Part shown: positions 4,925-52,459 of the stretch, one piece after another
Position numbering within the stretch: the first letter of the stretch is position 1
How the letters are laid out: every line of letters starts with the position of its first letter
NCBI RefSeq assembly: GCF_003334785.1
Contig: NZ_QOWV01000007.1
Reading direction: 5' to 3' (one strand)
Origin: Escherichia coli
GTDB lineage: Bacteria > Pseudomonadota > Gammaproteobacteria > Enterobacterales > Enterobacteriaceae
DNA length: 64,000 nucleotides
Position numbers and translations under genes: made by a program
Notes under the pieces: generated by a model
The model's input: only the letters and a program-made list of their open reading frames with translations
Database searches by the model: none
What the model was told of the DNA's origin: nothing

Positions 4925-5084
4925 GGGTTATTCCTTATCTATCTAATAACGTTGAGTTTTCTGGAACCTGTCCCATTGAACTCTCGCCGGAAAGCTCAAT
5001 AAGACAGGTTCTACGTTTAGTTGCCGCGCTTTTATATGCGCTTGATTTACAACATCTTCTGGATAATTTTTACCAGAAAAATCA

Positions 5085-5849
5085 CTAATTCTTTCGTTGC
5101 TCCAGACGACGCAGAGAACGCTCACGGCGGCTCTCTTCACGACTTCTGTCGAGCAAAATTTCTTCGATAAAGGCCAGATGGCGATGCGATGCTTCGCGCG
5201 CTTCTTCCGGCTTACCGGCCATAATCGCTTCAAATATGCGGGTGCGGTGACTACTCACCAGCGGCAGCATCTCGCGACGCGAATAGAGCAATTCGAAGTT
5301 CTGGCGGACATTCTGGGCCAACATCGGCTCCATACACCTTAGCAGATGAAGCAGAACCACATTGTGGGCCGCTTCGGTGACGGCAATCTGATACTGGAGT
5401 ACGGCGTTTGATTCCGCGTCCAGATCGCCAGACTGCTGCGCCAGCTCTATGGCGTGGTGGAGTTCACGGATGCGTTCCTTGTCTTCATCGGTACTACGCA
5501 GCGCGGCGTAATAAGCGGCGATACCTTCCAGGGCGTGTCGTGTTTCGAGCAAGTCATACTGTGACTCAGGATGGTCGGAGAGCAGCTCCACCAGCGGATC
5601 GCTGAAGCTTTGCCATAGGCTGCTCTGGACAAAAGTGCCGCCACCCTGGCGACGAAGCAACAAGCCCTTCGCTTCGAGACGTTGAATCGCCTCACGCAAG
5701 GAGGGACGGGAGACGTCAAACTGTTTTGCCAGTTCGCGTTCCGGTGGGAGTTTTTCGCCCGGGCGGAGAGTGCCTTCGAGGATCAAAAACTCCAGTTGCT
5801 GCTCAATCACATCGGAGAGTTTTGGTTGGCGGATTTTGCTGTAGGCCAT
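5085..5849 (-). CDS. pdhR: GntR-family pyruvate-responsive repressor of the pdh operon
   Basis: ORF track gives 265 aa from an upstream in-frame ATG; the known N-terminus [17 protein letters not shown] begins at the ATG at 5847-5849 (254 aa); winged-HTH then FCD-type domain. Confidence 0.93.
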
Positions 5850-5880
5850 GAGTTCCTGTCTTAAGCCACTTGCCGAAGTC

Positions 5881-5897
5881 AATTGGTCTTACCAATT
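5881..5897. promoter_or_regulatory. PdhR operator (perfect palindrome AATTGGT-CTT-ACCAATT) in the pdhR promoter region
   Basis: 17-bp inverted repeat read directly at 5881-5897, ~30 bp upstream of the pdhR start; matches the ATTGGTnnnACCAAT-type PdhR box. Confidence 0.7.
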
Positions 5898-37848: not shown

Positions 37849-38307
37849 TTATAGAGACAAGTCCTGCAGTCGCTCCGATAAGTCTCCGGTAGCCAACTGC
37901 TCTGCGTCGATATCTTCCTTGACCTGTTGATGCCAGGTTGTTTCATCCCACAGCTCAAACTTGTTGAACTGTCCAACCAGCATCACTTCTTTTGTCAGCC
38001 CGGCATGTTGCCGCAGTACTGGCGCGATTAACAATCGACCTGCGCCATCCATCTGACATTCGCTGGCATGACCTAACAGTAGGCGCTGCACACGGCGCTC
38101 AACCGGGTTCATGCTCGACAGACGCGATAATTTTTGCTCGATAATTTCCCATTCAGGCAGGGGGTAAAGCAGCAGGCACGGGTGATAAATGTCAATGGTG
38201 CAAACCATTTGACCGGCAGCGTTCTCAAGCAGCTGTTCCCGATAACGGGTAGGCACTGATAAGCGCCCTTTGCTGTCGAGATTGACTAACGTTGCTCCCC
38301 GGAACAT
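37849..38307 (-). CDS. mraZ: transcriptional regulator MraZ
   Basis: Track ORF 164 aa; known N-terminus [19 protein letters not shown] begins at ATG 38305-38307 (152 aa); the longer frame would run through the operator repeats. Confidence 0.93.
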
Positions 38308-38321
38308 GCCAGCCTCACCCC

Positions 38322-38352
38322 TTATTCCCACTTTGCCCCACAATTTCCCACT
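38322..38352 (-). promoter_or_regulatory. MraZ operator: three direct GTGGG repeats at 10-bp spacing
   Basis: Minus strand reads aGTGGGaaatt-GTGGGgcaaa-GTGGGaataag, 15-45 bp upstream of the mraZ ATG. Confidence 0.75.
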
Positions 38353-38354
38353 GA

Positions 38355-38390
38355 AAGGAGTTTACGGAGCTGAGGAAAAGCTTGTCAAGC
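38355..38390 (-). promoter_or_regulatory. candidate Pmra promoter (-35 TTGACA, ~18-bp spacer, -10 TAAACT)
   Basis: Perfect TTGACA on the minus strand (plus coords 38383-38388) and TAAACT (38359-38364), immediately upstream of the MraZ repeats. Confidence 0.5.
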
Positions 38391-38861
38391 CAGTCACAAG
38401 GCATACCGAGGTAAAAAACCCGATGTTTACGGCTAATATCAGCGTTGTTTATTTTACGTCCAACGTGCGAAGCAAATTAACGTTATGAATAGCTGTAAGA
38501 AAAAATCCCTCATCGTCATCACCGTTTTAAAATGACTCACTATTTTCCACAGCAAATATAAAGTGTCAGTTTGCGACGCGAGCGGCATTTTAGGACATAT
38601 CTTCCCCGGTTAACAGTCCTTGTTACGTCTGTGTGGCGCTTGATGCCAGCGGGTTTGCGCAAAAGCAAAGAAAAGTGTTTGTTAAATCGGCAATTCATCG
38701 CCGCATGTAACAAAATAATGCAAAAACGCGCTGTCGATATCACTTAATTATTGTGAATTTCAGCTGGTGAGTTAATTAACGGGCGGGTTTAAAAGCATTT
38801 ATCAATAATAGTCAGGAATAGTCTTATTTACTTTAAGCATATTGATGTCCAGTCCCGTACT

Positions 38862-43573: not shown

Positions 43574-44231
43574 ACTTAACTCCACTGTCACACTTAACTC
43601 CCTTTCCCTTATTGGAATGCAGAGAAATAATCCTGAAGAATATGATTTATCATGCATATAAAATAAGAAAAAGCAAAATGAGTAAAATTCGGAAAACATA
43701 AAGATACGGGTTCTGATAAAAACAGAATCCATTGCCGTGGAATGAGTCATTTACCACAGCATAATAATCCATAATGTTTTTGTTGCGAAAACAATCTAAT
43801 CATAACTACCGCGAATACTCAATCATCTACAAAATGGATTAAATGTGCTTATTTAATAATTAATTTATATATTTAATGCATTAATTCTTAACATTAATTG
43901 ATCAATAATATTCACCAAATCAATATCAAAAAAATCGCAAAAGATATAATTCAATACAAATCATCAGGATAGGTTTTGCAACGCGTGCATTTTGTCCCCT
44001 TTTTCCTCGTTGATTAGATGCAAAAATTTATGCTGAAATATGTCAACCGATGAAAAGCGTCGGTAGTTAAGCAGAAATTAATATCGCTTACTTTAACCAC
44101 CGCAGCACAATTAGCTAATTTTACGGATGCAGAACTCACGCTGGCGGGACGTTTTTATTGCGTCAGGGTTGACATCCGTTTTTGTATCCAGTAACTCTAA
44201 AAGCATATCGCATTCATCTGGAGCTGATTTA

Positions 44232-44318
44232 ATGACTCACATCGTTCGCTTTATCGGTCTACTACTACTAAACGCATCTTCTTTGCGCGGTAGACGAGTG
44301 AGCGGCATCCAGCATTAA
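44232..44318 (+). CDS. leuL: leu operon leader peptide
   Basis: 28 codons [28 protein letters not shown] with four consecutive CTA Leu codons at 44259-44270; sits inside a longer track ORF. Confidence 0.9.
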
Positions 44319-44339
44319 GCCAGCACGCAGTCAAACAAA

Positions 44340-44368
44340 AAACCCGCGCCATTGCGCGGGTTTTTTTA
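44340..44368 (+). terminator. leu attenuator (rho-independent terminator)
   Basis: AACCCGCGCC-ATTG-GCGCGGGTTTTTTT read directly between leuL and leuA. Confidence 0.9.
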
Positions 44369-50346: not shown

Positions 50347-50573
50347 AAAAAAAACCAGCAGGTATAATCTGCTGGCGGGTGATTTTACACCAATACTCAG
50401 TCACACATGATGCAGGCAAGTCAACTTTCAGAATTGCGGTCATCCCACTGCATCAGTCCTTCAAGCATGGTTAATCGTTGTGGGACGCTTAACCAACGCA
50501 ACCAGCACAACTTCGCTGTCGCGGTAAAATAGTGCTGGTAAAACTGACGCATGGGGCACCCCCTTGCTTCATC
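50347..50573 (-). ncRNA. sgrS: SgrS small RNA (glucose-phosphate stress; dual-function sRNA/mRNA)
   Basis: Minus strand reads GATGAAGCAAGGGGGTGCCCCATGCGTCAG...AGTATTGGTGTAAAATCACCCGCCAGCAGATTATACCTGCTGGTTTTTTTT, matching the SgrS sequence as I recall it, including the seed region and 3' terminator; divergent from sgrR. Confidence 0.9.
50421..50552 (-). CDS. sgrT: SgrT, 43-aa peptide encoded within SgrS
   Basis: MRQFYQHYFTATAKLCWLRWLSVPQRLTMLEGLMQWDDRNSES is the C-terminal part of a 99-aa track ORF; the ATG at 50550-50552 lies inside the sgrS 5' region. Confidence 0.85.
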   Translation of the reverse strand: MRQFYQHYFTATAKLCWLRWLSVPQRLTMLEGLMQWDDRNSES

Positions 50574-52296: not shown

Positions 52297-52331
52297 TTGC
52301 TGGTTGATAACAAAATCACTACACTAACGCC

Positions 52332-52424
52332 GTTCTCAACGGGGTGCCACGCGTACGCGTGCGCTGAGAAAATACCCGTCGAACCTGATCCGGATAACGC
52401 CGGCGAAGGGATTTGAGGCTCCTT
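52332..52424 (+). promoter_or_regulatory. sroA: TPP riboswitch (thi box; sroA) in the thiBPQ leader
   Basis: GGGGTGCC...CTGAGA...AACCTGATCCGGATAACGCCGGCGAAGGGA read directly, carrying the conserved THI-element CTGAGA and ACCTGATC-GG-TAATGCC-GCG-AGGGA-like core; 35-130 bp upstream of thiB. Confidence 0.85.
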
Positions 52425-52459
52425 CTCAAGTCCTTTGCCACTCTTTTTTGAGGTGCAAA

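Follow-up and report, generated by a model that had tools for sequence, protein, structure and literature searches.

Three GTGG boxes at the transcription start of Escherichia coli mraZ: the known MraZ operator of the dcw promoter Pmra

Between cra and mraZ, a 64,000-nucleotide stretch of E. coli DNA, the whole of which was analysed and is called the window below, carries three direct repeats of GTGGG on one strand. What do these repeats do, and are they binding sites for the product of the gene that follows them? We assign a probability of about 0.95 to the reading that they are the known autoregulatory MraZ operator of Pmra, the promoter of the E. coli dcw (mra) cluster. The operator has been described before, and autorepression of the division and cell-wall cluster by MraZ is established biology. 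Here we describe how the site is built, where transcription starts with respect to the boxes, which gene adjoins them, and how far the boxes and their geometry are conserved.

The mraZ locus and its promoter

The window comes from the E. coli chromosome. A 711-base segment around the site shows 95-100% identity to 5,424 of the 5,426 complete E. coli genomes; the features annotated beneath these matches are cra and mraZ, and the site sits between the two genes. The RefSeq gene order is ilvN, fruR leader peptide, cra, mraZ, rsmH and ftsL, and this ilvN-to-ftsL cluster lies on the minus strand of the window. Promoter and operator show no differences between the window and MG1655. RefSeq starts mraZ at ATG 38307. 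The 152-residue product matched the equivalog TIGR00242 at 227 bits (cut-off 98), its relatives in the PDB are the MraZ entries 1n0e, 9qlr, 9qlg and 9sx6, and PF02381 was found on 120 of the 120 homologues listed. Residues D11, R15 and R91 do not vary among 46 diverse MraZ representatives, and K13 hardly does. MraZ has two DXXXR motifs (bioRxiv 2022.02.09.479790), and cryo-EM assigned the base contacts to K13, R15 and R86 (PMC12957436); the conserved D11, K13, R15 and R91 correspond to these motifs and contacts. The gene adjacent to the repeats is an mraZ with conserved DNA-contact residues, the contact roles being those of PMC12957436.

Further elements of the window were recorded in passing. 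Rfam matches above the gathering scores were obtained for SgrS (50347-50573, minus strand), the leucine operon leader (44218-44367, plus), the TPP riboswitch (52330-52429, plus), tp2 (4927-5040, plus) and STnc40 (16912-16981, minus), all expected RNA elements of E. coli. A match to the Rfam family PssrA ('plasmid-encoded Shigella sRNA A'; 105 bits; 22628-22717, minus strand) falls at the chromosomal ftsA/ftsZ junction, where the family name is ill-fitting. Elements of the naRNA4/REP type form an array of four even copies with an 85-bp period at 61180-61500 (plus strand), between araA-like and araD-like ORFs, and two more copies lie at 16315-16508 (minus strand).

The minus strand reads cTTGACAagcttttcctcagctccgTAAACTcctttcaGTGGGaaattGTGGGgcaaaGTGGGaataaggggtgaggctggcATG across the operator region and GTGGGAAATTGTGGGGCAAAGTGGG over the box triplet itself (38351..38327). 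GTGGG recurs three times there at an exact 10-bp period (Table 1), giving at least three direct GTG(G/T) boxes in register with six spacer nucleotides after each GTGG. The original prediction had located the repeats at 38322-38352; their place on the minus strand was right, but the upper end lay one base too far, the 30-nt string that was quoted being 38351-38322. GTGGG-N5-GTGGG-N5-GTGGG, with at most one mismatch, had this single occurrence in the 64-kb window on both strands, and the pattern appeared in 0 of 100 dinucleotide-preserving shuffles, which bears out the proposed triple repeat on a 10-bp register. The two-box pattern GTGG-N6-GTGG has three further sites in the window, outside the operator; about 1.9 are expected in total, so this is chance level. 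There is no fourth box in register: GGGGT stands 10 bp past box 3, and the GTGA of the Shine-Dalgarno is 13 bp away.

Table 1. Features of the mraZ promoter region, in window coordinates.
Feature	Position	Strand	Basis
Pmra -35 hexamer, TTGACA, -37 to -32 relative to the Cappable-seq start	38383..38388	-	consensus scan
Pmra -10 hexamer, TAAACT, -13 to -8	38359..38364	-	consensus scan
Transcription start, first G of box 1, 44-nt 5' UTR	38351..38351	-	Cappable-seq (PMC4782308 supplementary file 1)
MraZ box 1, GTGGG, +1 to +5	38347..38351	-	direct reading, pattern scan, orthologue comparison
MraZ box 2, GTGGG, +11 to +15	38337..38341	-	direct reading, pattern scan, orthologue comparison
MraZ box 3, GTGGG, +21 to +25	38327..38331	-	direct reading, pattern scan, orthologue comparison
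Shine-Dalgarno-like GGTGAGG, ends 5 nt ahead of the ATG	38313..38319	-	direct reading; 'ggggtgag' also seen in orthologues from Enterobacterales
Spurious 12-codon 5' extension of the mechanical mraZ ORF, non-coding	38308..38343	-	ORF list vs RefSeq
mraZ coding sequence, 152 aa + stop (459 nt)	37849..38307	-	RefSeq annotation, identical sequence; TIGR00242

A TTGACA -35 and a TAAACT -10 had been proposed directly upstream of the repeats. A consensus scan confirmed the pair, which has 10 of 12 consensus matches around an 18-bp spacer and is the top promoter-like site of the intergenic region; the -10 ends 8 nt ahead of box 1. This promoter is Pmra of the dcw (mra) cluster, also named mraZ1p. The start was placed on the window by way of MG1655, with U00096.2 and NC_000913.3 presumed to share coordinates at 89.6 kb, as the differences between these versions lie beyond about 250 kb: the mraZ ATG of MG1655 is at 89634, and the first G of box 1, at 89590, corresponds to window 38351. 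Cappable-seq of MG1655 lists one strong start at U00096.2 position 89590 (plus strand, RRS 27.2) and none at 89596 (PMC4782308). Starts no more than 5 nt apart are merged by that method (PMC4782308), so an above-threshold start at 89596 would have its own listing. From the classical 5'-end mapping in the older literature, a 5' UTR of 38 nt is usually quoted for mraZ1p, as in PMC7761207. By that mapping +1 would lie at 38345, which is 6 nt away from the Cappable-seq start and, at 14 nt past TAAACT, unusually far from the -10; the normal distance from -10 to +1, here 8 nt, is obtained only with the Cappable-seq start. The supplements listing transcription start sites of Shigella M90T had no mraZ entry. 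Pmra combines both sigma-70 hexamers, a spacer within 16-18 bp and a start within 5-9 nt of the -10. With the start at 38351, the boxes cover +1 to +25 on the coding strand, between the -10 and the mraZ ATG 44 nt from the start. They begin exactly at the transcription start and do not merely lie downstream of the promoter.

Conservation of the boxes and their geometry

An alignment of 10 MraZ sequences retrieved 80 loci from species-representative genomes, all from Gammaproteobacteria and ranging from 95% to 51% protein identity. One incomplete locus was left out, and boxes were sought on the coding strand in the 150 nt upstream of mraZ at the remaining 79. GTGG-N6-GTGG-N6-GTGG was present at 73 of the 79 loci, and a relaxed pattern of GTG[GT] with 5-7-nt spacers at 76. 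The remainder of the same loci (416,490 nt, both strands counted) contained 0 matches to the GTGG-N6 triplet, and shuffled upstream regions likewise contained 0. The six loci without the exact core pattern have degenerate boxes, for example ATGG or GTGT. A scan for GTGGG-N5 triplets upstream of mraZ orthologues had been proposed as a check; the triplet did prove to be conserved, in the form of GTGG, but strict GTGGG in all three boxes occurred at only 2 of the 79 loci. Box 3 is GTGGT in most Enterobacterales, E. albertii included, and an A/T-rich spacer precedes GTGG in the conserved unit. By this comparison, the conserved recognition unit is GTGG, or GTG[G/T], on a strict 10-bp register, rather than GTGGG.

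The promoter keeps its place relative to the boxes as well. TTGAC is present at 62 orthologous loci, and at 58 of these it begins 36-38 nt ahead of box 1; 'ccgTAAACT' is kept across Enterobacterales. This distance from TTGAC to box 1 indicates that the orthologous promoters also keep box 1 at +1.

Within E. coli, a 31-nt operator query was found at exactly one place in 5,393 of 5,426 complete genomes. The three boxes were unchanged in the sampled variants with the exception of one strain, WS3294A, and a C-to-T change directly ahead of box 1 was seen in one strain. WS3294A (NZ_CP035819.1) carries a 5-bp deletion (CAGTG), equivalent to window 38353-38349, by which the start G and most of box 1 are lost; among 5,424 genomes it alone falls to 90-95% identity over a 101-nt stretch. 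Either an assembly error or a natural operator mutation that relieves repression could account for the deletion. Over the 101-nt stretch, which includes position 38371 in the spacer between the -35 and -10, a one-base difference from the window is seen in most of the 5,424 genomes; position 38371 (minus strand) is A in the window and in K-12 MG1655 and C in most strains, among them the four others that were fetched.

Other readings of the repeats

The repeats are rich in G-runs, and the minus strand of the window at 38349-38318 contains a canonical (G3+N1-7)x3 G3+ motif, GGGAAATTGTGGGGCAAAGTGGGAATAAGGGG. A G-quadruplex formed in the non-template strand or in the 5' UTR might then control Pmra output in place of MraZ binding, and there is a precedent in S. 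aureus, where a quadruplex downstream of PmraZ was biophysically characterised and a similar role was proposed for the mraZ promoter (PMC11796246). We consider this extremely unlikely. Of the 79 other gammaproteobacterial loci, 73 have the GTGG boxes and none has the canonical motif with four G3+ tracts that the window shows, and even E. albertii has GTGGT as its third box. Selection maintains GTGG at the 10-bp register, not four G3 tracts, and loops of 5-7 nt are unfavourable for a stable quadruplex. The G-quadruplex was rejected as a selected feature because its motif is not conserved. Within the 80 sequences compared (the window and the 79 loci) the motif, made of the three boxes and the GGGG before the Shine-Dalgarno, is confined to E. 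coli. It is conceivable, if very unlikely, that in the E. coli lineage the GTGGG of box 3, together with the GGGG at the ribosome-binding region, adds a lineage-specific quadruplex layer on Pmra or on mraZ expression atop MraZ repression; such a layer would resemble the one proposed for S. aureus PmraZ.

Action at the RNA level can be envisaged from the fact that the boxes are transcribed: they could belong to a structured 5' leader, or they could encode part of a longer MraZ that starts at TTG 38343. The leader folds no better than its shuffles (z = -0.16, with 77 of 200 shuffles at least as good). The longer protein corresponds to a 164-residue ORF that is mechanically open, and a few database gene calls use extensions of this kind. 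This frame exists only as a mechanical ORF, and the original prediction had already advised rejecting it. A start at TTG 38343 would lack a Shine-Dalgarno and lie only 8 nt from the 5' end; ATG 38307 has GGTGAGG 5 nt upstream, and the MFRG that it opens is conserved as residues 1-4 of MraZ. Of 74 orthologous loci, 61 have the upstream frame closed, and in just 13 can it be read through the boxes. Extension peptides in the database gene calls are mutually unrelated between species and rich in tryptophan, as expected from translated TGG boxes. With no Shine-Dalgarno at the TTG, a frame so seldom open and unrelated peptides, the extended MraZ was rejected, in accord with the RefSeq start, and we give an RNA-level role of the repeats next to no weight. 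Some public enterobacterial mraZ gene calls (P0003 and P0103) are 163-164 residues long, with the ORF extended through the operator.

The repeats might instead serve a different regulator of the dcw cluster, PdhR for example, for which weak binding at the mraZ promoter region was reported (1.7-fold ChIP enrichment and a weak gel shift; PMC3265435). The 'MraZop' probe of that study corresponds to window 38409-38366 (minus strand), which is the Pmra -35 region and not the boxes; a PdhR-box scan gave no match within the operator; and across Gammaproteobacteria the boxes go together with mraZ. At most, PdhR would provide a further input, and a site built for it is a vanishingly small prospect. Across the window, the only perfect site in the PdhR-box scan was pdhR's own operator, the palindrome ATTGGTCTTACCAAT (5882-5896) at the start of the pdhR ORF (5085-5882, minus strand), which is the PdhRop probe of PMC3265435.

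Repression by MraZ and comparison with known operators

The reading of the boxes as the MraZ operator joins the anatomy above to work on MraZ itself. In E. coli, MraZ is reported to bind direct repeats ('MraZ boxes') and to repress Pmra, a result attributed to Eraso et al. 2014, J Bacteriol 196:2053. PMC7761207 and PMC8475190 describe repression of Pmra by E. coli MraZ via repeats downstream of the -10 box, and PMC7761207 adds that this repression lowers expression of mraZ through murC. Overproduced MraZ is reported to affect the transcriptome broadly. Binding of MraZ to these exact boxes in E. coli is taken from the summaries of Eraso et al. 2014 in other papers. The proposal of an autoregulatory MraZ operator thus agrees with the TIGR00242 gene next to the boxes, with their conservation at 73 of 79 loci and with repression in E. 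coli as these papers report it.

The literature also supplies the contacts of one subunit per box, which were determined in Mycoplasma. In the cryo-EM complex of M. genitalium MraZ with DNA, one subunit engages each GTG(G/T) box, with six spacer nucleotides between boxes (PMC12957436). The ring of the protein opens, one subunit after another places a 'cradle-like' motif in the major groove at successive boxes, and mutation of the boxes results in a stepwise drop in binding and repression (PMC12957436). The same study indicates that E. coli MraZ is possibly a dodecamer rather than an octamer. Taken together with the 10-bp spacing of the boxes, the Mycoplasma contacts suggest that three subunits of one oligomer should share one face of the DNA from +1 to +25. 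Same-face binding by oligomeric MraZ, as originally proposed, is supported by this structure, on the assignments of PMC12957436.

A mechanism can be sketched on this basis. Three direct GTGG(G) boxes, one helical turn apart and starting at the transcription start, offer +1 to +25 to MraZ, an oligomeric protein of the SpoVT/AbrB type. The DNA-binding motif of one subunit (K13, R15 and R91 in E. coli numbering) would enter the major groove at each box from one DNA face. Occupancy of +1 to +25 would overlap the region that RNA polymerase needs in the open complex, and by this overlap MraZ is expected to lower transcription of mraZ-rsmH-ftsL-ftsI and the downstream genes, probably by sterically excluding RNA polymerase or trapping it at +1. 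Repression of its own cluster by MraZ constitutes a negative feedback loop.

A characterised operator was here recognised, and an over-extended ORF correctly rejected, from raw sequence alone. The analysis makes three small additions: among the gammaproteobacterial loci the unit kept is GTGG at a strict 10-bp register rather than GTGGG; single-base data place +1 at the first G of box 1, much as M. genitalium has it, and not 6 nt downstream; and the distance from promoter to box 1 is conserved.

Known MraZ operators share this layout to different degrees. The MraZ-binding repeats (MBRs) of B. subtilis are three GTGG[A/T]G motifs with 4-nt spacers (bioRxiv 2022.02.09.479790). They resemble the boxes of E. 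coli in being three direct boxes with a GTGG core and a 10-bp period at the mra promoter that are required for MraZ repression, which is abolished upon their removal (bioRxiv 2022.02.09.479790); flanking base preferences and promoter context are unlike those in E. coli. In Mollicutes, the operator is (AAAGTGKN3)3 in M. gallisepticum (PMC5282649) and four GTG(G/T) boxes, seen in the cryo-EM complex, in M. genitalium (PMC12957436). The GTG(G/T) core, the six spacer nucleotides and contact residues of the K13/R15/R86 type are alike, and the experimentally mapped start of M. genitalium is also a G inside box 1 (PMC12957436). Unlike E. coli, some Mycoplasma have four boxes, and MraZ is an octamer there, against a possible dodecamer in E. 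coli. At PmraBc of Burkholderia cenocepacia, 7-nt repeats separated by 3-nt spacers likewise recur every 10 bp, in a stretch that lies downstream of the -10 and overlaps the start; they were found by sequence inspection, and a repeat-bearing fragment was shifted by MraZ in EMSA (PMC7761207). It differs in having four repeats and a 100-nt 5' UTR (PMC7761207). The MraZ boxes of E. coli Pmra (Eraso et al. 2014, cited in PMC7761207 and PMC8475190) are the same locus and the same sequence as the site in the window. Nothing substantive differs from Pmra as it has been described, apart from the +1 on the G of box 1, with a 44-nt UTR, against the quoted 38 nt.
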